This document shows, one piece after another, positions 22 to 31,922 of a stretch of DNA of 64,000 bases (positions within the stretch are counted from its first letter, which is position 1; each line of letters begins with the position of its first letter). A program made the position numbers and the translations under genes. The stretch comes from Escherichia phage vB_EcoP_PAS59. The notes below the pieces were generated by a model, which saw nothing but the letters and a program-made list of their open reading frames with translations, did not search any database and was not told the origin of the DNA. The stretch is taken from sequence record OQ921332.1; one strand, 5' to 3'.

Positions 22-996
22 ATGATGCCTATGTCCGAAATCAAGTACATCTGGAACTCTGGTACACACCTTCCCGCTTATGGTGTAAAACGTTATGGCG
101 ATAAAGAGCCTATTACCACTCAGTATTTCCGCGAAGGGTTGGAGAATGGAGACCCTCGTCCTCCGTCTCATGTAGAAACATGGGCAGAAGAAAACAACCG
201 TCCTGATATTACTGATCGCGCTGTAATGGAAACCTTTGAAGCATTCATGGATAAAGACCTCGATTCATGTCTGGTGTGGCATGAAGCAGGATTCATGGGT
301 GTTTGTACTGATGGTTGTCCTGCTGATCGCGCTCTGTTCTATCTGATGCTGAATCGCACATTCTATACAGATGATGAAAAATCTGCTGTGTATGAAATGT
401 TGAACAAGATGTATAAGAAGGGCTGGTCTCCTTTAGCCTCTCTTGCATTCAGCCGACTGATCAACTCTTCAGTGGATGTGTTCGGTAACGAACGTGTTGC
501 TTTAACAGGGAATGATTACGATTCCTGTATCTTCCAAGCATCTCTGTATACAGTGGGTGTTGGCAGTACAATGGTTGAACCTCGCCAGACCAAGTGGCGA
601 CAGTGTGAATACACCGAAGGTGAAGGGCATCTTCGTGATGAAGACTTCCCCAGTCTGCTCTACCGTAGTGAAGGTGTGCGAGACTGTCGAGTGAATAACT
701 CAATGTTCTTACCAATCCTTCTTCCTCAGTATTGCAATCTGCCGAATGGTGAACGTCCGGTCATCACAGAGAAGTCACTCTTGGTTGAATTTATCCGAGA
801 AGTAGCTGAATCTGAAACATCTTTTGATAAAATTGTGTTCGGTTATAACTGGAACAATGAAACAGCTTCAGCTCGAAGCTACAACACGTATAACATTATC
901 AGTAGTATGTCCAATGGACTGACAGGTAGTAATTATACAGTACGTCCCTCAGAAGAGTGGGAAAACATTTTGGAAAAATTATTCTTCAATAAATAG
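22..996 (+). CDS. hypothetical protein; frame is open to position 1, so the 5' end may lie outside the window
   Basis: Long ORF, no recognisable motif; no in-frame stop upstream of the first ATG. Confidence 0.45.
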   Translation: MMPMSEIKYIWNSGTHLPAYGVKRYGDKEPITTQYFREGLENGDPRPPSHVETWAEENNRPDITDRAVMETFEAFMDKDLDSCLVWHEAGFMGVCTDGCPADRALFYLMLNRTFYTDDEKSAVYEMLNKMYKKGWSPLASLAFSRLINSSVDVFGNERVALTGNDYDSCIFQASLYTVGVGSTMVEPRQTKWRQCEYTEGEGHLRDEDFPSLLYRSEGVRDCRVNNSMFLPILLPQYCNLPNGERPVITEKSLLVEFIREVAESETSFDKIVFGYNWNNETASARSYNTYNIISSMSNGLTGSNYTVRPSEEWENILEKLFFNK

Positions 997-1004
997 AGGC
1001 GAAT

Positions 1005-1955
1005 ATGTCAATCTCCGCATCGATTGCTCCGGTAACACCGGCAGAGGATTTCGGTGAGTCAGTGTTTAAAGGAAGGGCTTGCTTTGGTACTTTTAACTGT
1101 ATGCACATGTACTCTGTTACAGACATTAATGGCGACAGTCTTAGACAAACAAACCTTCGTGATAGAACTTCAGAAATTGAAGTTATTAACTTCTGGCCTC
1201 ACAATTTTTATGGCGTACCGTCTAAAGATATCGAAAGAGCTTTAGTTGAAGCAACAGACATTTTTAACTCAATGTCTTGCTATAAAGATATGTTCTCTGT
1301 CACTTCGGTGAACTCTATTGCCGTGAACCTTCGAAACCATCCAGCAGACAAGGTGTTTACTGGACTAATGACCATCCGTAGCTATTTGGATGGTGATTTT
1401 AATGGAATGGAGTTCCTTCAGGAAGGCGTACAAGACAAGGAAGAGTTGCTTAAGCGACAACGAATCGGTTTAGCTCTACGCCTAGCTGGTTTAAGTCGTA
1501 ACTTCTTTGGTCGCTGGTGTTATAGTAATGACGTAGACTCAACTGATGAGTCAGCAGCGACTTATTTTGATGGTGACATGAGTGCAATTGCATTTCTGCC
1601 ACTAATTTGCACCACTGATGAATTTTCTGAAAACGTATGGGTTCAGAATGTGTTCGGTGTTGATGATAACCGAGATGGTTATGTACGAAACCATAATGAT
1701 GGAGTTCTCCGTCGTATGGCACGTCGTCGTGACCAAGACCCTGACCATTATGAGAGTATGAGTGAGTGGTTGCGTCTCTGGTCAACTTGTGCAGGTCACA
1801 AGCGAGAAGTATTAGATCAGCGTATGGACAGAATTACTGTTCGCAGTTTTATTGAACGTCTGATGCAAGCAGTACCTTCCTCAATGACACCAGAAGAAGC
1901 TGGTGCCCGTGTTGTTTCCCTTTTTGATGAACTCGTGGAGTATTACAATGACTAA
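1005..1955 (+). CDS. hypothetical protein
   Basis: Long ORF packed between neighbours; no recognisable motif. Confidence 0.45.
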   Translation: MSISASIAPVTPAEDFGESVFKGRACFGTFNCMHMYSVTDINGDSLRQTNLRDRTSEIEVINFWPHNFYGVPSKDIERALVEATDIFNSMSCYKDMFSVTSVNSIAVNLRNHPADKVFTGLMTIRSYLDGDFNGMEFLQEGVQDKEELLKRQRIGLALRLAGLSRNFFGRWCYSNDVDSTDESAATYFDGDMSAIAFLPLICTTDEFSENVWVQNVFGVDDNRDGYVRNHNDGVLRRMARRRDQDPDHYESMSEWLRLWSTCAGHKREVLDQRMDRITVRSFIERLMQAVPSSMTPEEAGARVVSLFDELVEYYND

Positions 1956-2754
1956 GCGCGCTTTCCTTATTGGCTCTGACCCTGAAATGTTTGTTCGTAC
2001 TGCTTCCGGTATTATCACCTCTGTGGCTGGTAAGCTGGGCTGTTCTAAAGATAATAAAATTGATCTGGCTCCTGATGTTCGTCTTCAAGAAGACAACGTT
2101 CTGGCTGAATTCGATATTAACCCACAGAAAGGGTTTGAAGCGTTTGATGATAATATTCAGCGTGGTATTGATCTGACTAACAAAGTTCTCAATGAACGTG
2201 GCATGGAGGCAGCACTTGGGATTAGCTCTCATGTGTTCACTTCAGAAGAACTTGAATCATTCCACCCGTCAGCTTTTGTATTTGGCTGTACTCCTGATTT
2301 CAATGCCTTCACTGGACAAAAGAACCCTTCACCAGTCGCAACCGATAAGGGTTTGCGTACTGCTGGGGGTCATGTGCACCTTGGTGTCTCCGGGACTTTA
2401 GAGATTACTCGACAAACTCAAATGATGTTGGGTGTGTTATGTGATTACTTCCTGTCCTTGCCAGCTGTGATCATGGATAAAGACACTCGTCGTAAAGAGT
2501 TGTACGGAAAGGCTTCTGCCATTCGCTACAAAGATTACGGTATTGAATATCGTTCTCTTTCTAACTTCTGGATTGGTGATAAGTCCACTCGCAAGTTTGT
2601 TTACGAGCAAGTGGATAAGGTTGTTCAGGGTTGTGATATGGAAGTGTTGATGTCACTTCACTCTCGCCTTCCAATTGAAAAGCTTCATAACATCATCAAC
2701 AGCAACGATGTTAAAGAAGCGGATAAATTCTCCTCTAAACTCCAGATTGTATAA
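1948..2754 (+). CDS. GCS2/YbdK-like carboxylate-amine ligase (amidoligase)
   Basis: Start ATG at 1948 overlaps upstream stop (ATGACTAA); 'FLIGSDPEMFV' and 'GGHVHLGV' resemble the G-x-E-x-E strand and GxHVHvG motif of YbdK-type ligases. Confidence 0.5.
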   Translation: MTKRAFLIGSDPEMFVRTASGIITSVAGKLGCSKDNKIDLAPDVRLQEDNVLAEFDINPQKGFEAFDDNIQRGIDLTNKVLNERGMEAALGISSHVFTSEELESFHPSAFVFGCTPDFNAFTGQKNPSPVATDKGLRTAGGHVHLGVSGTLEITRQTQMMLGVLCDYFLSLPAVIMDKDTRRKELYGKASAIRYKDYGIEYRSLSNFWIGDKSTRKFVYEQVDKVVQGCDMEVLMSLHSRLPIEKLHNIINSNDVKEADKFSSKLQIV

Positions 2755-2763
2755 GGTGATATT

Positions 2764-3390
2764 GTGAGCTTGTTAAGAGATTTTCAACACTATTATTGTG
2801 GAACATGGATTGCTCAGCGATCACCTGATGGTAAAAACCTCCCTCTATATGTGCTTGATGTTCGTCAGCAAGGTAACTTTGATATCGACGACTACTCACA
2901 CGACGCTGAAAGGTCTTTAGTGTTTGAGGCGGAACGCTGGACTAAAAACTCTGAAGGTCAGTTTGAACGTCAGATTGTTAGTAATATCCCAGTGTTTGAT
3001 CACAGCCTCATTCTAGAGTCTCCAGATGTAGGATACCTTCAGCATGGTAATAACATGGTGAGCTGGACCCATATCAACCCTGTTCGTCAGCGAGCTAAAG
3101 GCTTGATGGGGAATAAACTTCGTGGTGCTGCACCTTCTCTCGGACGTTCGATTCCGGGTGATTTGGTGTACAACTTGTTTAATCCAGAGTTTGAAGGGTT
3201 GGTTACTCGTTTCATCTATATCAACCCTGTCGATGGAAAAGTGTATTACAAAGGGGCTTACGTTGGAAACGTGCTTCTTGAAGCTGGCTATGGCGACAAC
3301 GGTCGCCAATCTTTAAACCTTCTGGAGAAGTTCAAGCACATTTCTTCAGACCTGTCATCATATAATGTAGAGTTGGTGGAATCACTATGA
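2764..3390 (+). CDS. hypothetical protein (GTG start)
   Basis: ORF embedded in the amidoligase island; no motif recognised. Confidence 0.4.
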   Translation: MSLLRDFQHYYCGTWIAQRSPDGKNLPLYVLDVRQQGNFDIDDYSHDAERSLVFEAERWTKNSEGQFERQIVSNIPVFDHSLILESPDVGYLQHGNNMVSWTHINPVRQRAKGLMGNKLRGAAPSLGRSIPGDLVYNLFNPEFEGLVTRFIYINPVDGKVYYKGAYVGNVLLEAGYGDNGRQSLNLLEKFKHISSDLSSYNVELVESL

Positions 3391-4487
3391 CAACCGTAGC
3401 ACAAGTTTTTGGATACCGTAACCCTCGCTTATCTGAACCGCATCCAAGCATTGCTTTTCAGTGTGGTGTTGGTATTGAGTTAGAAGTCGAAGGTACTACT
3501 GACATTGACGTTGATATGTGGGTTTGTACTGAAGACGGCTCTCTTCGTGATGGTTGTGAGTTAGTGTGTTCACGACCTTACAACGGTGAAGAATTACTTC
3601 GTGCTATTAACAATCTGAGTGAAGCAGTACAGGATTCTGGAGCCGAGGGGACTTGGCGCTGCTCCACTCACGTTCATATGGATATGCGGGACGCTGATAG
3701 TAATATCCTTAAGAAAGTTATTCTTGGGTGGACGTTCTATGAAAAGATGATGTTCAAATGTTCTGGATATCATCGTTACCGTAGTAACTTCTGCCCAGCT
3801 TTTGCTGTTGTTCAAGCTCAAGTTATGAATGCTTCATCAGCGTTCAACCGAGATGGGGAAGATTTCTTCCGTACTCTTGTTAATAGCTGGGACAAGTATA
3901 CCTCCCTTAACCTGTTGCCTCTATCTCAGTTTGGTTCTGTTGAGTTTCGTATTTCAGAGCCGAAGTGGAAAAAGAGTCAGCTGCTAAATCTGGTCAATCG
4001 CTTCTTGGTTCTCAAGAAACTGGCTGTTGAATATGCAGATTTAGATAATGAAGCTTATGTTGAGAAGTTGAATGAGCTGCGCTTCGCTCCTATGATTCAA
4101 CATCTACCTCTAGACTATACTCCAAGAGATAGCGATCTCACTGAAGGGTATCGTCTTGCCCGTGATATTCTGTTCTGTCGTGAGCAATCTGTAACTTTGG
4201 TTGGTCGTGTTCGTGTGCAACAGACTGGCCCTGATGGTGAAGTCCTTATCAACTTACGTGACATGAATGACTTCTATGGTTTCTTGGGATATGTGCGCGG
4301 TAATGCCAACACTGTCTATGAAGAGATCATGACCTACTACACCCCTCAGATTGAAAGCACTCGAATCGCAACGGTTCGTGAAATTCGTCACATGTTTGCA
4401 TTGATGCGTGAATCAGGTAGCAGTGATAATAACATCACTGATTACATTCCAGACCATCTGGAAATGCAATTAGAACGACTGCTGTAA
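3387..4487 (+). CDS. amidoligase-like protein (glutamine-synthetase-like fold)
   Basis: 'GVGIELEVEG', 'DGSLRDGCELV', 'STHVHMD' resemble the amidoligase/GCS2 superfamily. Confidence 0.5.
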   Translation: MTTVAQVFGYRNPRLSEPHPSIAFQCGVGIELEVEGTTDIDVDMWVCTEDGSLRDGCELVCSRPYNGEELLRAINNLSEAVQDSGAEGTWRCSTHVHMDMRDADSNILKKVILGWTFYEKMMFKCSGYHRYRSNFCPAFAVVQAQVMNASSAFNRDGEDFFRTLVNSWDKYTSLNLLPLSQFGSVEFRISEPKWKKSQLLNLVNRFLVLKKLAVEYADLDNEAYVEKLNELRFAPMIQHLPLDYTPRDSDLTEGYRLARDILFCREQSVTLVGRVRVQQTGPDGEVLINLRDMNDFYGFLGYVRGNANTVYEEIMTYYTPQIESTRIATVREIRHMFALMRESGSSDNNITDYIPDHLEMQLERLL

Positions 4488-4564
4488 CACAATGGGCGCT
4501 CTGATAAAGGGCGCATTTAAAGGTTAATTAGATGAAAGGGTTTACCCTTCAGGTGGATTAGAAA

Positions 4565-6598
4565 ATTTGTGGTATCGTATTAGCTGGCGGCAACATGACC
4601 TCAACAGATTTGGATATTTTCAACCAACTTCTGTATGCTGGTGTTTTCCGTGGACAGCACTCAACTGGTGTGTTTGGTCAGCGTAAAGGTGAAAAGCAAG
4701 TCTTCTCTTATAAAGAAGCTCTTCCTTCTTATGCTTTTATGCTCCAGACAGAATATACAAATATTACCAAAGGGCTTACGAACTACGTAGTTCCTCCTTC
4801 GTGGATTGTTGGTCACAGCCGACATGCCACTCGTGGGGCTGTCAATGCTCGAAATGCTCACCCATTTACTCACGGGGATATTACTCTGGTTCATAATGGA
4901 ACCCTGTTAGATCAAGATCTCCTTCCTGACAGTAAGCGTTTCGAAGTTGATAGTGAAAACATCTGCCACTCAATTAATACCATTGGAGCAGCAGAGACTA
5001 TCCAAAAACTGGATGGTGCATTCACTTTGATTTGGCATGATGCTAAAGACAACACGCTTCACATTATCCGTAATGATGAGCGTCCTTTCCACCTAGCCCG
5101 TTGTGGTTTAGATTGGTTTGGGGCTTCTGAAGAAGCTATGCTTATGTGGATTTTAGAGCGTTCTAAATCCCACAAGAACCGTATCAATGACCACTTCGAA
5201 TGTAAAGTGGGAACTGAGTATATCTTTGATGTGTCTAACAGTCGTATGACTCTGGTTCAAGAGGTGGAGCACAAGCTTCCGGTTTTTACGATAACGAGTC
5301 GCTGGGGCGGCTATTACTCGAACTCCTCTCTATATCAGAACCGACAGACAAACAAATCAAGCAGCAGCACAAGCGACATTTACGGAAACAAAGACGACAA
5401 GCCCGGCGTGACAAGCGGAGACATTCGTCGTCGTAAAGCGATTGAAGACCAGAACAAACTGGCTGCCGATCGTGGTCTTCCTTATCGTCGTGATGGTCGT
5501 GTGGATATTATTCCTCACGAGTTCCATGCTTATAACAACACAGATCGTGGTAAGATGGTTGGTTACATCTACGACGATAAAGCCCAAGAGTATGTCGAAG
5601 GGGATGTTCACAACGTAGCCAAAGATGAATATCTTAAGGCTCTTGAAAACCCAAAGGTAGTATATCGCGGGACGATTGCTTGTATCTCCGAAGTGGACAG
5701 TATGATTCGCCTCGTACTAACTTCAGGGCTGTTTGTTGATGCTACAGATAAGGAGCCTCAAAGCACTACTGCTGATTTTGATGATGATATCCCTTTTGAT
5801 GCAGAGGACTCCTTCATCACTAAAAATGGTGTAGAAGTCACTCGTAAGTTCTGGGAATCTCACTCTCATGGAGATTGTGGTGGCTGTGATAAGCACATTG
5901 ACTGGAAAGATGCTCGTAAGGCTGTGTTTGCTTACCAAGCGTACTGGCATCCAGAATGCTTCGAAGCGTTGTCTAAAACCTCTGAAGAGGAAGAAGACGT
6001 ACCTTTGGGTGTATGTGCTGTCTGTGGTGAAGTCAAGACTGATTTCGAGTTTGACAACGAAATGAGTAAACTTCGTGGTGAAGATATTTGTTATATCTGC
6101 TCCAAAGAAATCAAAGATAAAGTAAAAAATGTTACTCTGTCTGAAGGTTATATTTGGACTAAAGCAGTAGACACAACTAATCCGCGTCGTCCTGAAGTGG
6201 CTGTTCGTGTTGATGAACGTATGCTTAGCCGTATGATTGTAATGGTCAGCTCAGCAAAACGTTCAGGGGATATTACACTCGCAGATGTTCCTAACTCATA
6301 TTTGGAAAAACGTGGTGGCGATACTTATGCCATTTCCGTTTACGGTCCAAAGAATGCCCCAAAGGAGGTACCCGCTGAGAAAGCGGAGACATTTCCAGAA
6401 AAATCAACCTCTCTCCGAAAAACAGTTGTCAGTTATGACGGACAACGAACAGCTGAGTTCACAAAAGCCCTCTGGACTTCAATTGGGTTTTGTGCAGTCT
6501 GTTATAAACAAATTCCGTGGCGTGATGCAGAAACTTGCTCACTAAACAAAGAAAATAGAGTGATCTGTAATTCAGATTACTGTAAAGGTAAACACTAA
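4565..6598 (+). CDS. class-II (Ntn) glutamine amidotransferase domain protein with Cys-rich C-terminal region; predicted AUU start
   Basis: In-frame 'I-CGIVLAGG...RGQHSTGV...HPF...LVHNGTL' begins right after an in-frame TAG; AGGTGG 8 nt upstream of ATT at 4565; C-terminal CxxC clusters. Confidence 0.6.
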   Translation: MCGIVLAGGNMTSTDLDIFNQLLYAGVFRGQHSTGVFGQRKGEKQVFSYKEALPSYAFMLQTEYTNITKGLTNYVVPPSWIVGHSRHATRGAVNARNAHPFTHGDITLVHNGTLLDQDLLPDSKRFEVDSENICHSINTIGAAETIQKLDGAFTLIWHDAKDNTLHIIRNDERPFHLARCGLDWFGASEEAMLMWILERSKSHKNRINDHFECKVGTEYIFDVSNSRMTLVQEVEHKLPVFTITSRWGGYYSNSSLYQNRQTNKSSSSTSDIYGNKDDKPGVTSGDIRRRKAIEDQNKLAADRGLPYRRDGRVDIIPHEFHAYNNTDRGKMVGYIYDDKAQEYVEGDVHNVAKDEYLKALENPKVVYRGTIACISEVDSMIRLVLTSGLFVDATDKEPQSTTADFDDDIPFDAEDSFITKNGVEVTRKFWESHSHGDCGGCDKHIDWKDARKAVFAYQAYWHPECFEALSKTSEEEEDVPLGVCAVCGEVKTDFEFDNEMSKLRGEDICYICSKEIKDKVKNVTLSEGYIWTKAVDTTNPRRPEVAVRVDERMLSRMIVMVSSAKRSGDITLADVPNSYLEKRGGDTYAISVYGPKNAPKEVPAEKAETFPEKSTSLRKTVVSYDGQRTAEFTKALWTSIGFCAVCYKQIPWRDAETCSLNKENRVICNSDYCKGKH

Positions 6599-6609
6599 GA
6601 GGTATAGTT

Positions 6610-6843
6610 ATGGAAGTTCGTAAACTGATGTTGGATAACGTGGTAACTACCCGTCGTATTCCGATGACAAGCACAGGATGTGATAACCTCCGAGCAATTC
6701 AGAAGTGGATGCAAGAAGGTATTGGGAAGCTGGTTGACTCTCCAGTAGAAATCCCTTTTCCAACCGTTATCAATAACGTGTTGGCTGACTATGTTAAAAT
6801 GAAGGGGATTAAAGTTGAGCCTCATGTCAAGCAAGGGAGCTAA
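6610..6843 (+). CDS. hypothetical small protein
   Basis: ORF only. Confidence 0.3.
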   Translation: MEVRKLMLDNVVTTRRIPMTSTGCDNLRAIQKWMQEGIGKLVDSPVEIPFPTVINNVLADYVKMKGIKVEPHVKQGS

Positions 6844-7045
6844 GCCTCACCTGACAATGCTGGAGTATCAACAACTCCGACTTCAACAACTGGTAACGGA
6901 GCAGCGAAAGCTGTATCCGTTTGCTTTTAACTTAATCGACTCTCCAAGTGATGCCCAAGAAGACGAAATGTTCGCCGAGTATTGGGCAATCGAAGCTAAA
7001 ATTCAATCCTGTCGTAACGAAATTCTTAAACTAAAAGGTATCTAA
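6815..7045 (+). CDS. hypothetical small protein (start uncertain)
   Basis: ORF only; overlaps the previous ORF. Confidence 0.3.
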   Translation: MSLMSSKGAKPHLTMLEYQQLRLQQLVTEQRKLYPFAFNLIDSPSDAQEDEMFAEYWAIEAKIQSCRNEILKLKGI

Positions 7046-7047
7046 AA

Positions 7048-8295
7048 ATGACTACTCGTATCCGTGTTCTTCCGTATGGCCCGTCTGATTCTGTTAACGC
7101 TCTGGTATCTGCTATCAGTGATACTATCCGTGATGAACGTATCAACGCTAACATAATGGGTCTTCTTTCAGAGAACAGTCGCTGGCGTTCTCGTGAGGAT
7201 GATGTGGTTGTGAACTACGGGAACCGTCGCTATCCTGAATCCTTCTTTGGTTCTGCAACTGTCCTTAACCGTACCGCAGCCTTACATATGGCAGCGAACA
7301 AACGTCGTGCTTTCAGCGTGATGGACCAAGCAGGTGTTAAAACTGTTGAGTATACAGATGTTCAAGAGATTGCTCAGGAGTGGTCAAACTCTGGCAACAT
7401 TGTGTATGAACGTCATGAACTGACTGGTCACTCTGGTTCGGGTATCGTTGTTGTTGAGCCTCGTGATTCAATTGGTCAAGCTGAACTGTACACCAAAGGT
7501 ATTCAAGGTCCACGTCGTGAATGGCGTGTCCATGTGTTCAAAGGTGTTATCACCTATGTTCAGAAGAAGATTCGTCGTAACGGCTATCGTGAAGACCCTA
7601 ACTATCGTGAAGATGTTCGTAACCATCACACTGGTTGGGTTTACTCAAGTTCCTTCACAGACGCTCCAAATGATGCATCTCTGATCAACGCAGTGAAGGC
7701 CGTTGAATCGATGGGTCTGGATTTTGGTGCAGTTGATATCATTACCAAAGGCCGAGAAGCATGGGTACTGGAAGTTAACACAGCACCGGGCCTGACTGGT
7801 ACAACTCTGGATATCTACCGTCACAACATCCTTGAGTTTGTTAAAGCTCAAAATCCTCTCTATACTCCTCAGTATAAAGTGGGTTACCAGACTCCTGTTG
7901 AAGCTCCAATCGAAGACGGAGATGGAGAGTTGGTAGATGACAGCGAAAGCGCTAATGATGAAAACTTTGCACTGGAAGGTCAGGTAGCACAGCCGGTTGA
8001 GTTGGTAGATGTAGTTCCTGAAGAGATGCAACTGGAAGGTCAGATGAATACTCAAACTATTCGTAATGCACCTACTGGTTACACTTTATCTCGTGGTTAT
8101 TGGATTGCAGATATCCGTCATGTCCATAACAACCTGCAACCGAATGCAATGTCTTCCAATGTCATTTTGTTCTGTGATGGTCGTAACTTCTACCGTAGTG
8201 GCTGGAACGTTCCGGTCAATCCAGTCCAGATTCATAACCCTCGCAAGTTAGAATCTGTCAATGTTGAAGGTAGCGAAGTAGCAGTAACTCTGTAA
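7048..8295 (+). CDS. ATP-grasp family ligase
   Basis: 'EWRVHVFKG...LDFGAVDIITKGREAWVLEVNTAPGL' matches the ATP-grasp C-terminal signature. Confidence 0.65.
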   Translation: MTTRIRVLPYGPSDSVNALVSAISDTIRDERINANIMGLLSENSRWRSREDDVVVNYGNRRYPESFFGSATVLNRTAALHMAANKRRAFSVMDQAGVKTVEYTDVQEIAQEWSNSGNIVYERHELTGHSGSGIVVVEPRDSIGQAELYTKGIQGPRREWRVHVFKGVITYVQKKIRRNGYREDPNYREDVRNHHTGWVYSSSFTDAPNDASLINAVKAVESMGLDFGAVDIITKGREAWVLEVNTAPGLTGTTLDIYRHNILEFVKAQNPLYTPQYKVGYQTPVEAPIEDGDGELVDDSESANDENFALEGQVAQPVELVDVVPEEMQLEGQMNTQTIRNAPTGYTLSRGYWIADIRHVHNNLQPNAMSSNVILFCDGRNFYRSGWNVPVNPVQIHNPRKLESVNVEGSEVAVTL

Positions 8296-8321
8296 TTAAA
8301 TTAAACAAAAAGGAATTTGTA

Positions 8322-8564
8322 ATGTTGTCTATCGAAGATTTGATCAGCCGTGGAATGACCGAAGAAAAAGAGCCTCTGATTGTAGGCTCTCGTAAAGCTA
8401 TCAACCAACTCTGTGAAGAGTTCGGTATCACAAATAAGAGAATGATTGGTAATCAGTTCTCTGCAATCATCACCTTCCTCAAACGAGGTGATAAATATTC
8501 AATGGAAAGTGCTGAGCGTATCATCGCAATTGCACAAGCAGATAAGGGAGTAACAAGTCTGTGA
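8322..8564 (+). CDS. hypothetical protein
   Basis: ORF only. Confidence 0.35.
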   Translation: MLSIEDLISRGMTEEKEPLIVGSRKAINQLCEEFGITNKRMIGNQFSAIITFLKRGDKYSMESAERIIAIAQADKGVTSL

Positions 8565-8746
8565 ATAAATATACAATCATGTTTCGTACAGTAACATCAG
8601 AAGGGAATATTCAATCTCTGGATATTCAAGCAGACCGCTTTGAATCACTTGGAACAAATGTCAATTTCTTCCGAGGCGCAGAGCTAGTAGGTACGTTCCA
8701 ATCTGATGTATTAACTGGTGTGATCAAACACTTCGAAGTAGAATAA
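8561..8746 (+). CDS. hypothetical protein
   Basis: ORF overlapping upstream stop. Confidence 0.3.
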   Translation: MNKYTIMFRTVTSEGNIQSLDIQADRFESLGTNVNFFRGAELVGTFQSDVLTGVIKHFEVE

Positions 8747-8812
8747 TTTGCTTTAGCCTCTTCGAAAGAGGAGGCTAGTTCGAATTTAACTGAAACACTA
8801 AAAGGTAATATA

Positions 8813-9244
8813 ATGTCTGATAAAGTACTAGTTGCAACTTACGGAAGCTTGAGAAAAGGTCAACACAACCACGCTATCAATGCTCGTGCAGGTGGTGTGT
8901 CTATTGGTGAAGGGTGGACAGTAAACAACTGTAACCTGTATCAGTATTGCACAGCATACTTCCCAAGTGTATCTTTGGAGCATGACAGCAATGGTAAGCC
9001 TGTTCGTGTAGAAGTCTTTGAAACAACCCAAGCTGGTCTGGAAGGTCCGTATGACGGTCTGGAAGGTCATCGTGGTAATGATAACCCATACACCTTTTAT
9101 AAGCGTACACTGATTCCAGTATTATTGGACAGCGGTGAAACTGTGGAAGCGTGGATTTATCACATCGACGAAGAACAAGATGTTCTGGTTGAATCGGGTG
9201 ACTGGACAGCATATCTGGCAGGTGAGAAGGATGACAGTAACTGA
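8813..9244 (+). CDS. gamma-glutamyl cyclotransferase / AIG2-like protein
   Basis: N-terminal 'VATYGSLRKG' (YGSL motif typical of the GGCT/AIG2 fold), about 140 aa. Confidence 0.5.
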   Translation: MSDKVLVATYGSLRKGQHNHAINARAGGVSIGEGWTVNNCNLYQYCTAYFPSVSLEHDSNGKPVRVEVFETTQAGLEGPYDGLEGHRGNDNPYTFYKRTLIPVLLDSGETVEAWIYHIDEEQDVLVESGDWTAYLAGEKDDSN

Positions 9245-9472: not shown

Positions 9473-11263
9473 ATGTCAAAGATCATTTTGGGAGACACAG
9501 GCTGTAAAGAGTGCATCTCTCATGGTCGTGATAAGACCCATAATCACATGATTCTCTTCCGAAATGAAGAGTCCGGTGAGGAGTGGGGTTCATGTAACAG
9601 ATGTGGTGCGTATGAAATCTTCGAGAAAGGAACGACGCCCACTCCTAATGAAAAGAAAGAGCTGTCCCCTGAAGAACTTCGAGAAGTCTTAGACGATTGC
9701 TTAGAGCTTCCTCAGGGAGAGTTGACTCGTCGCTTAATCCCTAAAGCTGTGTCTGAACGCTATGGATGCCGTATTGGTTTAAGTCAAACAGACGGTCAAA
9801 CTCCTGACAGCTACTTCTTCCCTCGTGAACGTGATGGGAATATTGTTGGATATGAAGTAAAACTTCTAGACAGCAAGAAATTCTATTATGTAGGTAATGT
9901 GAAAGAAGCCGACTTATTTGGTATGGCTCAAGCACAACGTGGTGACGTATACAACAAGAAACTCTTCATCTTTGAAGATCCTCTCTCTTGTATGTCTGGG
10001 TTCCACGTACTTACCGCGTTTACAAACGCAACTAACATCAAACCTGCTTGCGTCTCTCTTCCGTTCGGTGCAGGTTCAATCTCTTCTGTCTTATCAAGAA
10101 ACCGTGATTTTATTAATGGTTTCGAGGAGATTGTACTCTGCATGGACAATGATGATGCAGGTGAGATTGCTTTAACTAAGGGTCGTTCTCTGTACCCGCA
10201 TGTTAAGTTTTCAAGGATTCCAAAAGGTACGTTCACTTATAACGGACAAGAAAAGGAAATCAAAGATGCAAACGACATGTTACTGGCAGGGAGAGGTCAA
10301 GAGCTTTTCAATAATCTTAAGTATTCAGCTAAGCGGGAATCTCCTGCTGGAGCTGTTACAGTTTTTGATTGCCTCGAAGATGCTCTGAAGAAAGCGGAAT
10401 GGGGTATTCCTTATCCGTGGAAAACTCTTAACGACATGACCTTTGGTATTCGTTGGGGAGAGATGGTTGCAATCGGCGGTGGTGTTGGTTCAGGTAAAAC
10501 CTTAATCGCACACGAACTGGTAGCATGGCTTTGCCTTGAGCATGGTTTTAATGGTGGTGGCTTCTTCTTGGAAGAGAAGGTAGGCATGTCTGTTAAGAAC
10601 ATTGCTGGTAAGTCTGCATCTGTTCCATTTCACCGACCAGATGTTGAGTATGAAGAAAGCCAGCTACGAGATGAAGCACTTCGATACGCTGATAAGTTTT
10701 TCTTATACGACAACTTTGGACAGAATGAGTGGGAAGACATTAAGCAGTGTATTCGCTTTTGGGTAGTTGAGAATCAATGTAAGTTTATCATCCTTGATAA
10801 CATCACTGCATTGGTATCTCACTTAACTCCATCCGAAGTGAATACAGAAATCAGTAAGATTGCTTCAGAGCTTGCTGGTATGTGTAAGGAATTAGACTTC
10901 ACTGCTTTTGTGTTATCTCACTTGAATGCTCCGGCGGGCGGTGCCCCTCACGAAGAAGGTGGTCAGGTTAAAGAAGTACAGTTTACTGGCTCACGTTCAT
11001 TAATGCGCTGGTGTCAATGTATTATCGGTTTCGAACGTAATAAACAAGCGGATGGGTTAGGTAAAAACTTGTCAATCATACGTCTGCTCAAAGAGCGTAA
11101 CTATGGACAGACGGGGGTTTGCTATACCAAATATATTAACGAAACAGGTCGTCTTGTAGAACGAGAAGATCATGAAGTTGATGAAGATAATCCGTTTACA
11201 GTCACCAACGGAGAAGATGCAGCTTCCTTACTCTCACAAGAAGGGGAGGCGCGTCCGTGGTAA
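9473..11263 (+). CDS. DNA primase/helicase (T7 gp4-like)
   Basis: N-terminal Cys4 zinc ribbon (CKEC...CNRCG), DnaB-type Walker A 'GGGVGSGKT'; AGGAGG before ATG. Confidence 0.85.
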
Positions 11264-11807: not shown

Positions 11808-13280
11808 ATGATTAAGATTCCATTATCTGAATTGAACCTTCAAGAAGGAGAAGCCCTCAGTGTAGGGCTTGACCTGATTCGTAATTTGATCAGAGATAAC
11901 GTAGTCCCTGATGGCATCTATCCTGTTATTGCAGGTGGTGCTATCCGTGATACGTTCTTTCAAAATAGAACTCCGAATGATGTTGATATCTTCCTAGTTC
12001 AAGGAGGATTACGTTGGAACGCTCGTCAGGAAAATAGCCCTGCTAACGTAGGTAATGCTGCACTTTTCCTTGACAACTTCTTATCTTGGACAGAAAGTAA
12101 AGGGCTTCAGGTTACATCTCGACTAATTCAGCCTGTTAACGGGACAACCTATGCTGAAGCGCTTTTCACTTTCCAAGAGATTCTGGAAATCGAGATTGAT
12201 CAAGTTAAAATCCAGATGATGATTAATCTACCTTTGGATATGGATACTTTAAGCCGTCGCTTCCCTATGATCTGTCAAGGGTTTATGACTCTTGGTAATC
12301 TGTATGTGTCAAACGAAGGTTTGTTTGCAATGTCATACACTCGTGACATTCCTGTGGTGTCCAGTCGTGAAATGAAGTATGTTCACAAGAAGTGGCCTGA
12401 AGCAACTGTTGCAGTTTATAGCAGTTCTACCGAATATATGCACCTTGCAATGGGAGCTTTCGGTGAGCCAGAAGTTCACCTGATTAGTGATTTAGTTGGA
12501 CCTATGGCTGGTGTAAATTTATATCAGAATCAGCGTCGTCATTATACCCTGAAGATGATGGAAACTACATTAAACATTCCTCAGGAAAGGGGTCGTAGTT
12601 ATCTGGACGAGGAAGTTAACCTACAGACAGAATGGTCTAGTGGATTAACCACTATAGGTGCTGAAGCAATTACACGACCTTGGACTCCGGGAACTAACAG
12701 ACGAGATCTTCAAGCTTTTAATGAAGAAACTTCTCGAACTGTTCGAGGAGGTGTTGTAGGGTATAACGTACAACCTCATGAAAGACCTCGTGATACTTTC
12801 ACTGGTAGTTTTGGTAGTGCACACTCTTCTGGAATGGATACTCGTACATGGCATGTCCAAGGAGGAACTGCTCGTCCTATTCCCTCTCCGTCAATGGATG
12901 ATTTGCAGCGTTCTCGTCGTTCATGGGAAACAGTAAGCTCTGTTGTTCAGGGTCTACGTGCTAGTGATATTGAACGTGTAGAAGTTGGTGATTTGCCAAC
13001 CTCTACAGAAGATCGAGTATCAGCTATAGCGGCTCGTGAAGCTGCTCATATTGGTTTTGCATCATTAGCTAATGACGCTAACGAAGCTCCTCGACCTGTT
13101 GGTCGTCGTAATGGTCTAGCTCACTCTGACACTGCACTTGGTGCAGAACTACGAGCAGCAGCTCGTGAGCTATCTGGTGAGCTTCACAACAACCTGGCAG
13201 GTGTTACACTATCTCGTGAAACAGCTCGTAATATGATTAATAATTTGGCATCATCTGTACAAGGAAACAGAAACTCATGA
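11808..13280 (+). CDS. nucleotidyltransferase-like protein (Pol-beta superfamily head motif) with low-complexity C-terminal half
   Basis: 'IAGGAIRDTFFQNRTPNDVDIF' matches the GGxVRD...DxD motif of CCA-adding/poly(A) polymerase heads. Confidence 0.4.
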   Translation: MIKIPLSELNLQEGEALSVGLDLIRNLIRDNVVPDGIYPVIAGGAIRDTFFQNRTPNDVDIFLVQGGLRWNARQENSPANVGNAALFLDNFLSWTESKGLQVTSRLIQPVNGTTYAEALFTFQEILEIEIDQVKIQMMINLPLDMDTLSRRFPMICQGFMTLGNLYVSNEGLFAMSYTRDIPVVSSREMKYVHKKWPEATVAVYSSSTEYMHLAMGAFGEPEVHLISDLVGPMAGVNLYQNQRRHYTLKMMETTLNIPQERGRSYLDEEVNLQTEWSSGLTTIGAEAITRPWTPGTNRRDLQAFNEETSRTVRGGVVGYNVQPHERPRDTFTGSFGSAHSSGMDTRTWHVQGGTARPIPSPSMDDLQRSRRSWETVSSVVQGLRASDIERVEVGDLPTSTEDRVSAIAAREAAHIGFASLANDANEAPRPVGRRNGLAHSDTALGAELRAAARELSGELHNNLAGVTLSRETARNMINNLASSVQGNRNS

Positions 13281-13810
13281 GTCTTTTAGGTTCTCAAGAA
13301 TTACACAGCGTTATTGATAATGGCTTTTTAGATGCGGAGCATAAATATGTTAACGCTGCTAGTGTGGATATCCGTATTGGTGATACTATCCTTGTTGAAG
13401 AGCAGGCTGATGGTATTGTTGACATTGATGCTAAAGAAAACCTCAAGTGGAAAGAAGTAAAAATCCCTGAAGATGGTATCGTTATCACTCCGGGACAGTT
13501 CTTCTTAGCTCACTCAATGGAAGAGTTTAACCTTCCAGACAATATTTCAAGTCTGTTTGTACTCCGCTCCTCAATGGCTCGTTGTGGTTTAAACCATCTC
13601 CATGCTGGTTGGGCTGATGCAGGGTTTAATAACAGTAAGCTGACCTTTGAGTTCCATAACGTTACTCACAATCACAGCTTACGAGTTCGTGCTGGGATGC
13701 GTGTCGGTCAAATGGTTATGTTTGAACACTCTCACGCTGGTGATGATTCCTATGCAGTGAAGGGTCGTTATAACAACTCCGATGGGGTTGTTGCTTCTAA
13801 AGGTGTATAA
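13277..13810 (+). CDS. dcd: dCTP deaminase (dUTPase superfamily)
   Basis: 'ASVDIRIGD', 'ITPGQFFLAHSMEEFNLP', 'LRSSMARCGL', 'WADAGFNNSKLTFEFHN' track the Dcd signature. Confidence 0.7.
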   Translation: MSLLGSQELHSVIDNGFLDAEHKYVNAASVDIRIGDTILVEEQADGIVDIDAKENLKWKEVKIPEDGIVITPGQFFLAHSMEEFNLPDNISSLFVLRSSMARCGLNHLHAGWADAGFNNSKLTFEFHNVTHNHSLRVRAGMRVGQMVMFEHSHAGDDSYAVKGRYNNSDGVVASKGV

Positions 13811-16110: not shown

Positions 16111-16602
16111 ATGAATAATATTGACCCGTCAATAAAAGAAGCTCTTGATTACGACCCTTTGACTGGAGATTTCCGATGGGTTAAAACTTATGGAAAAGGA
16201 CACAAAGGGTCTATAGCTGGTTCTGTAAATACCAATGGGTATTTGAGAATCGTTTATAAAGGTGCTAGATACTACGCTCATCGACTTGCTTACTGGTGGG
16301 ACACTGGATTGCTTCCTGAAGAAGTAGATCACATAGACCGCAACAGGATAAACAACAAAAGAGAGAATCTTAGGGGGACTACTAGATCAGGAAATGGCCT
16401 AAACAAAGTAGCTCAGAGTAATAATTTATCAACCGGAGTGATTGGAGTGACTGTCCATAGAAGGAAAAGTGGCTCTATTGCTTACCGGGCGGTATTTAAA
16501 TCTAAGCACATAGGACTCTTCTCAACCATAGAAGAAGCCTCTAGGGAATATAATAAAGTCAAGGAGACTTACATAAATGACAATCAAAGCTTCATTAATT
16601 GA
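16111..16602 (+). CDS. HNH homing endonuclease with AP2-like DNA-binding domain
   Basis: 'LDYDPLTGDFRW...AHRLAYWW...DHIDRNRINNKRENLR' plus 'GVIGVTVHRRKSGSIAYRA'. Confidence 0.7.
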   Translation: MNNIDPSIKEALDYDPLTGDFRWVKTYGKGHKGSIAGSVNTNGYLRIVYKGARYYAHRLAYWWDTGLLPEEVDHIDRNRINNKRENLRGTTRSGNGLNKVAQSNNLSTGVIGVTVHRRKSGSIAYRAVFKSKHIGLFSTIEEASREYNKVKETYINDNQSFIN

Positions 16603-24685: not shown

Positions 24686-24871
24686 GTGGAGATTACATCT
24701 GTGATGGTTGCACAATCTAAACGATATAAAGTCTGGCTAGATGAAGGAGCTGAGTATCCTGAAGGTTTTGGCTGGAAAGTTATTCTGGAAACAGATGATA
24801 TGGAGGAGGCTGAAACGAAAGCTGAATCTTTCAACTACTCATATTATGAGGACACATACGAGAATGGCTGA
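24686..24871 (+). CDS. small acidic protein, dispersed paralog B
   Basis: 'RYKVWLDEGAEYPEGFGWKVILETDDMEEAET...YYE'. Confidence 0.4.
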   Translation: MEITSVMVAQSKRYKVWLDEGAEYPEGFGWKVILETDDMEEAETKAESFNYSYYEDTYENG

Positions 24872-25370
24872 AGTTTATTTTGCAGGTGATGGTCACCTAG
24901 GCCATCGTAATATTTGTAACTTTAGAAAGAAGTTTAGTAGTATTGAAGAGCATGACAAAGCTATCTTAGCAGCGTTTGATCATGTTACTAAACGTGATAA
25001 AACTTTCTTTACAGGTGACTGGGTGTTTGAGAAGTATGCACTTGATATTATCGCTGAAGTAAAAGGAGAGAAGCATCTTGTCTTAGGGAACCATGACAGA
25101 TTAGAACTTCTCCCTGATATGATGAAAGTCTTTAGACACATCAGTGGTGATTATAAGTACAAAGAGTTTTGGGTAACTCATATTCCTATTCACTCTGATG
25201 AAATGAGAGGAAAGTATAATATCTATGCTCATACTCATAATCATGTGATTGATGATTGGAGATACTTCTGTACTTCGATGGAACAAATCAACTTTAAAGC
25301 TGTATCTCTGCAAGAGATTAGGAAGACCTTTGATGAAAGAAGAAAAGAACAAAGTATCATCACTATTTAA
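24864..25370 (+). CDS. calcineurin-like metallophosphoesterase
   Basis: 'GDGHLGH...GDW...LVLGNHD' metal-binding motifs; start ATG 24864. Confidence 0.6.
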   Translation: MAEVYFAGDGHLGHRNICNFRKKFSSIEEHDKAILAAFDHVTKRDKTFFTGDWVFEKYALDIIAEVKGEKHLVLGNHDRLELLPDMMKVFRHISGDYKYKEFWVTHIPIHSDEMRGKYNIYAHTHNHVIDDWRYFCTSMEQINFKAVSLQEIRKTFDERRKEQSIITI

Positions 25371-29243: not shown

Positions 29244-30054
29244 TGTAATCTATCCTGAAGTGGCAATTGTGGATGCAGATGTTCTACGATATGAAGTCGG
29301 TGCTCTTACACAAGAGCATCCTTTTCTAGACACAGGTCGTGTTCCAGTTGATTATGGATTCTTGATTGAACGACTTCAACATAAAATAGATGTAATCATT
29401 GCAAGGTCTGGTTGCGAGAAAACAATCTTTTACTTCAGCGAAGGTGGTAATTTTCGGTTTGATATTGCTAAGCAGCAAGGCTATAAAGCTAATCGACCAC
29501 CGGGAGAAAGACCTCACCACTGGCAAAATGTCAGTGATTACATTAAAGAGAATTACGAATACGTAGAAGTTTTTGGGAGAGAGGCGGATGATGCCCTAGC
29601 TGAAAGACAGAGACGTGATAAGAACACTATCATTTGCACCCGTGATAAAGATTTGTTAATCACTCCCGGATGGCATTACCGTTGGGCTTGCGGGGAGAGA
29701 CAGAAAGAAGTACCTCCTCACTATGTATCAGAGGAAGTAGCATGGCAGAACTTCTTCTACCAGATGCTGATCGGGGATAGCACAGATAACATTCCCGGAT
29801 GCGGTGAGAAGGTTGAAATGATGTGGGGTGGCAATCTAGTAATGCGTCGTAAAGGCATTGGTAGTAAGGCTGCAATCAAACTTATTGAGAAGGTATTCGA
29901 TAAGTGGACTCTTTATCATATTATACGAATGGAATACTATAAAAGGTTCGAGGAAGAAGCAGAAGCTAAGATGTTAGAAAATGCTCGATTGCTCTTCGTT
30001 GGACAAGCTGAAGGTGACCTCTTTGATTGGTCATGGTTAAACAAGGAATGGTGA
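29236..30054 (+). CDS. 5'-3' exonuclease / flap endonuclease
   Basis: 'LIGDSTDNIPGCGEKV...GIGSKAAIKLI' H3TH-type motif, acidic clusters. Confidence 0.65.
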   Translation: MSDVIYPEVAIVDADVLRYEVGALTQEHPFLDTGRVPVDYGFLIERLQHKIDVIIARSGCEKTIFYFSEGGNFRFDIAKQQGYKANRPPGERPHHWQNVSDYIKENYEYVEVFGREADDALAERQRRDKNTIICTRDKDLLITPGWHYRWACGERQKEVPPHYVSEEVAWQNFFYQMLIGDSTDNIPGCGEKVEMMWGGNLVMRRKGIGSKAAIKLIEKVFDKWTLYHIIRMEYYKRFEEEAEAKMLENARLLFVGQAEGDLFDWSWLNKEW

Positions 30055-30542
30055 TCTTGGATAGAGAAGAGTTAAAAAGGCTTCTCAAGTATGATCCAAA
30101 TAGTGGTCAGTTTACTTGGAAAGTTAAGAAAGGTAGGAAGAATGTTGGAGATGCGGCTGGATGCTTTTATGGAAAACATAGATACCGCTGCATCAAGTTA
30201 AATCAAATATTGTATCAATCTCATAGACTTGCATACCTTTACATGGAAGGTTACATTCCTGATTGTGTAGACCACATAGACGGAGACCCTTCTAATAACA
30301 AGTGGTGCAATCTAAGAGAAGCAACTTTAAGTCAGAATCAGTGGAACAGAAAGATCTCTATAAACTGCACTTCCGGAATCAAGGGAGTCTCTTTCCATAA
30401 AAGAGCTAATAAGTGGAGAGCTATTATTGGAGTGTCTGGGAAATCTATCCATCTAGGGTATTATGCAACTAAAGAAGAGGCTGAAGAAGCCCTGAGACTG
30501 AAAAGAGAAGACCTACACTTAGGCTTTCATCGTCACAAATAA
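30027..30542 (+). CDS. HNH-AP2 homing endonuclease (start uncertain)
   Basis: 'LKYDPNSGQFTWK...SHRLAYLY...DHIDGDPSNNKWCNLR' plus 'GIKGVSFHKRANKWRA'. Confidence 0.65.
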   Translation: MVMVKQGMVILDREELKRLLKYDPNSGQFTWKVKKGRKNVGDAAGCFYGKHRYRCIKLNQILYQSHRLAYLYMEGYIPDCVDHIDGDPSNNKWCNLREATLSQNQWNRKISINCTSGIKGVSFHKRANKWRAIIGVSGKSIHLGYYATKEEAEEALRLKREDLHLGFHRHK

Positions 30543-31418: not shown

Positions 31419-31922
31419 ATGAATGAAGAGAAGTGGACCCATTTTCTATACTCCTCTGAATCTCCTTCTGGATTTCTCTGGAGGAGTAAACCAGCCCCTT
31501 TTGTAAAAATAGGAAGCGTGGTAGGTACGAAAAACAAGAAAGGTTATTGGGAAATCAACACCAAAAACTCTGGAAGAATTAAAGCTCATCGGTTGGTTTG
31601 GGAGTACCATAATGGACCTATCCCAGAAGGGTTTTTGGTAGACCACATAGATAATAACCTAGACAACAATACAATAGAAAATCTTAGACTTTGTAATGCG
31701 AAGGAAAGTGCTAGGAATACTAGAGGTTGGAGCAGTAAAAGAGATTCTTTACCTAAAGGTATTCATGACAACTCTCATGGAGGAAAGAATCCGGGATACT
31801 ACCAAGCTCGAATTTACATATCAGGTAAATCTTACACGAAATCTTCATACGATATCTTATATTTACACAGATGGCTTAAGAGTAAAAGAGAGGAACATCA
31901 TGGAGAGTTTAAAAAAGATTGA
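31419..31922 (+). CDS. HNH-AP2 homing endonuclease
   Basis: 'SPSGFLWRSK...AHRLVWEY...DHIDNNLDNNTIENLR'. Confidence 0.65.
   Translation: MNEEKWTHFLYSSESPSGFLWRSKPAPFVKIGSVVGTKNKKGYWEINTKNSGRIKAHRLVWEYHNGPIPEGFLVDHIDNNLDNNTIENLRLCNAKESARNTRGWSSKRDSLPKGIHDNSHGGKNPGYYQARIYISGKSYTKSSYDILYLHRWLKSKREEHHGEFKKD

Follow-up and report, generated by a model that had tools for sequence, protein, structure and literature searches.

What does a phage do with an enzyme that carries, among its replication genes, the catalytic head of a CCA-adding enzyme or poly(A) polymerase? The question is raised by one gene of Escherichia phage vB_EcoP_PAS59 (record OQ921332.1), of which we analyzed a stretch of 64,000 nucleotides, here called the window. 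An earlier model-generated reading of these letters (the sequence-only reading) had recognized in this gene a nucleotidyltransferase (NTase) motif of the CCA-adding/poly(A) polymerase type, followed by a long disordered tail, and had suggested that the product could repair tRNA 3' ends, tail RNAs, or act on DNA ends. That reading is partly supported, in that the class assignment stands at the level of fold and motif and the proposed tRNA CCA repair is unlikely. Related phage records already annotate the gene as a nucleotidyltransferase; what is added here is structural and evolutionary detail. Our best explanation, which we hold tentatively, is that the gene encodes a catalytically competent, minimal NTase derived from a class II head, that it forms a clade with the head-only proteins of Autographiviridae and with Gad2, and that it probably serves in counter-defense.

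Motif A and the folded domain

The open reading frame (ORF) and the motif A quoted in the sequence-only reading are both real (Table 1). Motif A has the form GGAIRD-x9-DVD in the window NTase, and the pattern GG-x-[VIL]-RD-x(7-11)-D-x-[DE] had a single match, at 11934, when the window was translated in all six frames, and none in 200 shuffles. In an alignment of 29 family sequences, with identity down to 21%, residues G43, G44, R47, D48, D58, D60, and F62 were invariant, so that the paired carboxylates expected of this motif, D58 and D60, are retained throughout. Residues Y115, I125, Q136, P153, Y191, and K195 were invariant as well, and position 124 was always Asp or Glu. The signature of the Pol-beta superfamily, hG[GS]-x(9-13)-Dh[DE]h, is matched by VIAGGAIRDTFFQNRTPNDVDIF, with a strand at residues 37 to 42, a helix at 44 to 51, and a second strand at 58 to 65 in the AlphaFold2 (AF2) model. 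Nei-Gojobori ratios of nonsynonymous to synonymous substitution (dN/dS), calculated between the window and the related phages Bas86 and ECBP2, were 0.04 to 0.07 for the folded domain, 0.24 to 0.51 for the linker that follows it, and 0.16 to 0.26 for the C-terminal part. The invariance of the active-site residues, together with this strong purifying selection on the domain, argues for a working enzyme.

AF2, run with the 29-sequence alignment, gave a predicted local distance difference test (pLDDT) score of ~90 for most of residues 1 to 282, which are confidently predicted to adopt an alpha/beta NTase fold of the Pol-beta type. In structure, these residues most closely match poly(A) polymerase I of E. 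coli and CCA-adding enzymes of class II, and in a Foldseek search of the PDB the 18 best matches were all class II CCA-, CC-, or A-adding enzymes. When the family profile was compared with PDB sequences, the top five were CCA-adding enzymes, matched over motif A with a best E value of 0.003. The PolyA_pol match looked for on the strength of the sequence-only reading did not appear in the window protein, which had no match to Pfam PF01743 at E values up to 1; its relatives matched below threshold only (18 of 29, best E value of 2.5e-4). Given the Foldseek results, the PDB profile matches, and these subthreshold matches in relatives, the protein is correctly assigned to heads of the CCA/poly(A) polymerase type. 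Pfam, NCBIfam, and PADLOC scans gave no meaningful match for the window protein, and a single-sequence phmmer search of the PDB gave chance matches within the tail only, which were discarded.

Relatives among phage enzymes and Gad2

The 3 kb around the NTase gene share 92 to 95% nucleotide identity with Escherichia phages E20-1, EK010, SU7, Bas86, and ECBP2, which belong to the genus Suseptimavirus of the Gordonclarkvirinae and are phiEco32-like podophages with elongated heads. The protein matches phrog_12715, "nucleotidyltransferase," with an E value of 4e-163 (residues 1 to 483 against profile positions 1 to 456 of 457). By tblastn, the NTase was found in 97 phage records, all of them from phages of Escherichia or Shigella or from records that name only a "phage"; 22 of the 97 aligned over the full length at 84 to 96% identity, and the others aligned only over the first 200 to 290 residues, at 31 to 42%. 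A phmmer search with residues 1 to 290 against 1.84 billion representative proteins returned 28 clusters of 274 to 490 amino acids, a count that includes one artifact. This was P0045, a metagenomic protein of 3044 amino acids that matched residues 87 to 166 (E value of 1.7e-9) through 15 repeats and that we rejected as a repeat-rich surface protein. The NTase family is shown to be restricted to phiEco32-like phages. Its members phiEco32 gp73 (437 amino acids), SU10 CDS74, Bas86_0066, and the EK010 and SU7 RefSeq proteins occupy the same genomic position as the window NTase, which is 84 to 96% identical to Suseptimavirus proteins and, over residues 1 to 283, 31 to 33% identical to Kuravirus proteins. 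At 490 amino acids the window protein is the longest form in the family, and the tails are wholly different between genera. In published mass spectrometry of a phage preparation, SU10 CDS74, an entry annotated as an NTase, was reported among the proteins detected (PMC4281155).

A Foldseek search of predicted viral structures returned many phage proteins of 137 to 254 amino acids, named "Poly A polymerase head domain" or "nucleotidyltransferase," with target-normalized TM scores of 0.5 to 0.64 and mostly from Autographiviridae. LIMEzero ORF22 and phiAS7 gene 3, which belong to phrog_1614, are each encoded immediately 5' of a DNA polymerase gene. In Pectobacterium phages, a head-only NTase gene (PP47 gp28) lies between those for the helicase and the DNA polymerase (DNAP), and such genes occur in 37 of 46 Pectobacterium Autographiviridae phages, compared with 60 of the >500 other phages of that family (PMC7693777). 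The window protein matches phrog_1614 over residues 32 to 66 only (E value of 8.4e-6; relatives reach 2e-8), and therefore we regard phrog_1614 as a sister family rather than the same family. Members of both are small class-II-derived heads without tRNA-binding domains, encoded in a T7-type replication module. However, phrog_1614 proteins (137 to 254 amino acids) have no tail and keep both the motif B Asp (FDFNINQ) and an Asp at the position of the family's Gln136, and their genes are scattered, host-associated accessories, whereas the family NTase is a core gene of its lineage.

It has been shown that deletion of Gad2, a 400-amino-acid protein of Bacillus phage SPbetaL7 (ORF_159) with an NTase domain predicted by AF2, renders the phage Gabija sensitive and that a Brevibacillus laterosporus homologue blocks Gabija (10.1101/2023.05.01.538930). 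Using a Gad2 profile made from the nine homologues in Supplementary Table 10 of that preprint, hhalign scored the family at 90.4% against Gad2 (E value of 1.4e-6, 202 columns), at 87.3% against the LIMEzero/phiAS7 type (3.8e-6, 181 columns), and at 77.4% against class II (2e-5, 129 columns); reversed and column-shuffled controls gave no more than 1.5%. Among precomputed matches, PF26128 (Gad2) matches close homologues of LIMEzero ORF22 and, weakly, family member P0033. Gad2 and the family are both phage proteins with an N-terminal NTase of ~200 amino acids and a variable C-terminal extension, and they have in common, in this order, hAGGxh...NDhDhaF, a strand with a conserved Gln (IQMM in the family and LQMI or IQLI in Gad2), F-[PD]-x-x-x-C, and P-x4-5-R-x2-K-Y-x2-K. 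The Gad2 segment YPIVSLLRVQKYxDKGY resembles residues 182 to 196 of the window NTase. In contrast to the family, Gad2 is without the RD of GGxxRD, has a structured-looking C-terminal domain in place of the polar tail, and is encoded within an anti-defense locus of SPbeta-like phages rather than within a replication operon.

Several conserved positions outside motif A can be placed against these relatives. In profile alignments the invariant Tyr115 lies opposite a conserved Tyr or Trp of phrog_1614-type and Gad2 proteins, and the loop that holds it (residues 109 to 117) may be the counterpart of the class II "flexible loop." Gln136 lies opposite Gln in Gad2 and Asp in the Autographiviridae head-only enzymes, in a register taken from low-confidence parts of the alignments. 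At the position of motif B, where class II enzymes have RRDFTINA, phrog_1614-type proteins have FDFNINQ, and Gad2 has FDFTVC, the family form is xxFPxMC, and from this comparison the motif-B Asp appears to be replaced by the invariant Pro153. The two Arg residues of the motif B region are present in the window protein and are not conserved across the family.

If our preferred explanation is right, the enzyme would work by a two-metal mechanism, moving a nucleoside monophosphate from a nucleoside or deoxynucleoside triphosphate onto an acceptor hydroxyl, most probably at a nucleic-acid 3' end. By analogy with Gad2, it would probably act early to middle in infection, either blunting a host defense or manipulating the nucleic acid of host or phage in some other way, and the tail would be a rapidly evolving module for recruitment or binding. 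The counter-defense part of this explanation is drawn from Gad2 being the nearest relative that has been studied, and several observations weigh against it. Once motif A was deleted from the profiles on both sides, the three hhalign comparisons all failed to beat their shuffled controls; since the similarity without motif A is not significant, placement beyond "class-II-derived head" rests on fold and motif order. The family is thus securely a class-II-derived phage head-only enzyme, and the indication from sequence that it is nearer Gad2 than other relatives is only suggestive. The precomputed PF26128 match was found in only one of the eight distant members looked up, where it was weak, and in none of the close relatives. 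The mechanism of Gad2 was itself listed as unknown in 2026, and so the analogy supplies no biochemical mechanism (PMC12904381). Furthermore, the NTase gene is a strictly conserved core gene with a fixed place in the replication operon, which is unusual for anti-defense. As to catalysis, the activity of the whole family is predicted, and the third metal ligand is unassignable by alignment: position 124 is always acidic but lies opposite Lys in Gad2, and position 136 is invariably Gln in the family but Asp in phrog_1614-type proteins, both by weak alignments.

In a bolder form of the counter-defense explanation, which we consider improbable, a core counter-defense NTase would modify the ends of phage nucleic acid, or another acceptor, so that end-sensing or nuclease defenses such as Gabija fail. 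If true, this would help to explain the restriction resistance of Gordonclarkvirinae and would give an E. coli model for a Gad2-type mechanism. Gabija was not among the set of systems tested on Gordonclarkvirinae in the published work (PMC11990801). Head-only NTases of the class II type are widespread in podophages, usually beside T7-type DNA polymerase genes, and the function of the phiEco32-like version is directly testable because phiEco32-like phages have isolates that infect E. coli K-12 (BASEL Bas86 to Bas93). The result would tell whether RNA, DNA, or protein is the acceptor and whether the enzyme has any part in broad restriction resistance.

Alternative activities

The replication-module location given in the sequence-only reading is correct, with the primase/helicase and the exonuclease subunit upstream and the dCTP deaminase downstream. 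It is this location that favors a DNA-linked enzyme, one that extends DNA 3' ends or primers or performs a DNA-modification step together with the split polymerase and the dCTP deaminase, an alternative that we regard as unlikely but worth weighing in full. Twelve contexts were compared, namely those in the window, in Bas86, in phiEco32, and on nine metagenomic contigs, of which one is short and covers the upstream side only. In all 12, the NTase gene directly follows an ORF of ~180 to 190 amino acids in the exonuclease-subunit position, and in all 11 that reach downstream it is directly followed by a dCTP deaminase of 177 to 180 amino acids. The exonuclease subunit was identified by a PHROG or Pfam match in six contexts and by annotation in two, and in the rest its identity is taken from size and position. 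Invariant synteny of this kind, with overlapping or 2-nt-spaced junctions, is what a DNA-linked role would predict. The Asp of motif B, a ribose-recognition motif in class II enzymes, appears lost, and this too would fit an enzyme working on DNA. LIMEzero and phiAS7 also have their head-only NTase gene next to that for DNA polymerase, and in Pectobacterium phages it is flanked by those for helicase and DNAP (PMC7693777). Gordonclarkvirinae withstand restriction-modification systems to an unusual degree, and the deaminase and the NTase were taken by the BASEL authors as a possible pointer to DNA modification (PMC11990801).

However, the phage already encodes a complete PolA polymerase subunit and a 5'-3' exonuclease, and the gene order may simply reflect the common ancestry of T7-type replication modules. 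The strong avoidance of palindromic hexamers in the window suggests DNA that is exposed to restriction, not chemically masked. To our knowledge, no class II-type enzyme acts on DNA. A genome containing deoxyuridine was also considered and judged unlikely, because the phage encodes ThyX and palindromes are avoided. The T7-type DNA polymerase of this phage is split, with its exonuclease and polymerase subunits 8 kb apart and ~20 genes between them. Because the polymerase domain is encoded by a separate gene (Table 1), the NTase is not the replicative polymerase, and the idea that it is a missing polymerase was ruled out.

There is little chance, in our estimate, that the protein is a genuine enzyme of tRNA 3'-end (CCA) repair or maturation, even though its closest matches among solved structures are CCA-adding enzymes, one tRNA-Arg gene is present in related phages, and canonical CCA enzymes are common in phages (423 matching records, with a form of 257 amino acids in Arthrobacter phage Mimi). 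The Pol-beta fold and motif A are common to class II enzymes and the family, with GGAVRD-x8-DRD in E. coli Cca at the place of the window form, but, unlike class II, the family has a helix and loop of ~50 residues inserted past motif A. When E. coli Cca and PcnB were aligned with six viral class II enzymes, motifs B (RRDFTINA) and D (EDPLR) were clear. In the family, no EDxxR (motif D) was found; the candidate region is P-x4-R-[DE]-x2-Y-x2-KK at residues 182 to 195, in a part of the alignment, past motif A, that is unreliable. A mapping of class II motifs B to E by profile alignment was rejected, as the hhalign extensions past motif A had zero confidence, and the correspondences given here for motifs B and D are inferred, since they come from spacing and weak alignment.

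The family also has no conserved RRD, whereas Mimi gp184, even at 257 amino acids, retains RRDFTMNA and EDSLRMLR. The body and tail domains that hold tRNA are missing: the fold ends near residue 282, and the remainder has low pLDDT and cannot be aligned between genera. Their absence, like the lack of a PF01743 match in the window protein, speaks against CCA repair. No tRNA gene lies within the window, and the host has its own Cca. The sole tRNA of SU7, tRNA-Arg(UCU), is encoded at 7051..7126 of SU7, in an early region outside the window, and its gene ends GGGTGC-A-CCA; because the gene encodes its own CCA, no CCA synthesis is needed for it. A role in tRNA maturation was rejected on the tRNA-free window and this CCA-encoding gene. 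With the tRNA-measuring domains and motif B absent, the enzyme would not be expected to rebuild CCA. The window NTase is not a canonical CCA-adding enzyme, and the tRNA 3'-end repair put forward in the sequence-only reading is the least likely of the proposed activities.

An acceptor other than nucleic acid, as in protein nucleotidylylation, a nucleotide signal, or small-molecule modification, is similarly doubtful, because a motif A of the form GGxxRD is typical of class II and the best sequence and structure matches are all to class II enzymes or their phage offshoots. There was no PADLOC model match to a CD-NTase or defense-type enzyme and no best fold match to cGAS/DncV-like enzymes. Very improbable is an inactive scaffold whose NTase fold binds only a nucleotide or a partner while the tail does the work, for, although the Gln at the sister family's Asp position and the purifying selection on the tail would suit it, the invariance of GG, RD, and both DxD carboxylates across ~20% identity and the low dN/dS of the domain are the pattern of a working active site.

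The tail and the neighboring genes

The low-complexity C-terminal stretch of ~200 amino acids, described in the sequence-only reading as rich in Ser, Arg, and Ala, agrees with the composition of the last 208 residues (A, 12%; R, 12%; S, 10%; G, 9%; T, 8%). Hydrophobic residues make up 22% of the tail versus 38% of the N-terminal domain, and, with a net charge of about 0, the tail is not basic. The disorder claimed for it was supported for residues 283 to 441, where pLDDT is <50; beyond these it is at most in the 50s, with low-confidence helices in residues 363 to 489, and the last 145 residues are conserved within the genus, the final 24 being invariant there. Its dN/dS indicates that the tail is translated and under purifying selection and is not junk. 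The dS of the tail is 3 to 8 times that of the N-terminal domain, and GC content at third codon positions is 0.17 in the tail-coding segment (12654..13277) versus 0.35 in the N-terminal domain, although overall GC is higher in the tail. The tail-coding segment may be a hot spot of recombination or mosaicism.

Tails of different genera were unalignable (BLASTP E value of 0.69), and across the family all are polar and near neutral and extend 54 to 275 residues past the core. Several of the short family members have aromatic residues at the C terminus (GGWTF, IRWQW, TTWDW, RRFNF, and SEYDF, for example), and phiEco32 and Nieuwekanaalvirus-type tails have acidic C termini (FEIDENN and VDESDSIAD); the window protein ends NRNS. 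These end motifs of the family may be docking motifs. A search with residues 346 to 490 was uninformative, in that even known full-length homologues went unrecovered. The tail-coding segment also contains, shortly before the dCTP deaminase gene, a hairpin resembling a terminator and two matches of the sigma-70 promoter type (13028..13046 and 13183..13244). All of these are consensus matches only, and promoter-like sites are rarer in the window than in shuffles.

Table 1. The NTase gene, its segments, and adjacent or related genes (positions in the window)
Feature	Position	Strand	Remarks
T7 gp4-like primase/helicase	9473..11263	+	First gene of a tightly packed block
PolA-type 3'-5' exonuclease subunit, 182 amino acids	11257..11805	+	Stop 2 nt before NTase start
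NTase ORF	11808..13280	+	Complete; ATG start, 490 codons, TGA stop
Folded NTase domain, residues 1-282	11808..12653	+	Class-II-like head plus remodeled helical "neck" (predicted)
Motif A, residues 41-62, IAGGAIRDTFFQNRTPNDVDIF	11928..11993	+	Invariant positions in the 29-sequence alignment
Asp58 and Asp60 codons	11979-11981 and 11985-11987	+	Metal-binding Asp residues of motif A
Loop, residues 109-117	12132..12158	+	Invariant Tyr115; pLDDT <50, low confidence
Beta-hairpin, residues 122-143	12171..12236	+	Acidic position 124 and invariant Gln136 (hQhM)
FPMIC, residues 152-156	12261..12275	+	Motif B position, by weak alignment and spacing
Residues 182-196, PVVSSREMKYVHKKW	12351..12395	+	P-x4-R-[DE]-x2-Y-x2-K-K; Y191 and K195 invariant
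WSSGL, residues 276-280	12633..12647	+	Conserved [WY]-[ST]-x-G-[LR]; ends the family's common core
Hypervariable, indel-rich linker, residues 283-345	12654..12842	+	Predicted disordered; in-frame indels
C-terminal region, residues 346-490	12843..13277	+	Ala/Arg/Ser rich, genus conserved; predicted amphipathic helices
dCTP deaminase	13277..13810	+	ATG overlaps NTase TGA as ATGA
PolA polymerase-domain subunit, 574 amino acids	20089..21813	+	Separate gene

Among the larger neighboring ORFs scanned, there was no RNA ligase or polynucleotide kinase, and only a calcineurin-like phosphoesterase was found. This metallophosphoesterase is encoded at 24741..25370 in the same direction of transcription (Pfam E value of 1.9e-4), and enzymes of its type can heal nucleic-acid 3' ends. 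Upstream of the replication block, at 22..9244, there is a conserved cluster that, by the names given in the Bas86 and phiEco32 annotations, encodes a COOH-NH2 ligase, an amidoligase, a glutamine-fructose-6-phosphate aminotransferase-like protein, a RimK-like ATP-grasp protein, and a gamma-glutamyl cyclotransferase. Parts of this amidoligase/RimK-like cluster also lie beside the primase/helicase block in distant metagenomic relatives. ORFs resembling HNH homing endonucleases, one of them with an AP2 domain, were found in the replication and nucleotide-metabolism region at 16111..16602, 30027..30542, and 31419..31922. Finally, the window contains 648 palindromic hexamers versus ~1077 expected from base composition, and 13 palindromes are absent altogether; there are 132 GATC sites versus ~238 expected, and yet 14 EcoRI and 30 EcoRV sites remain.

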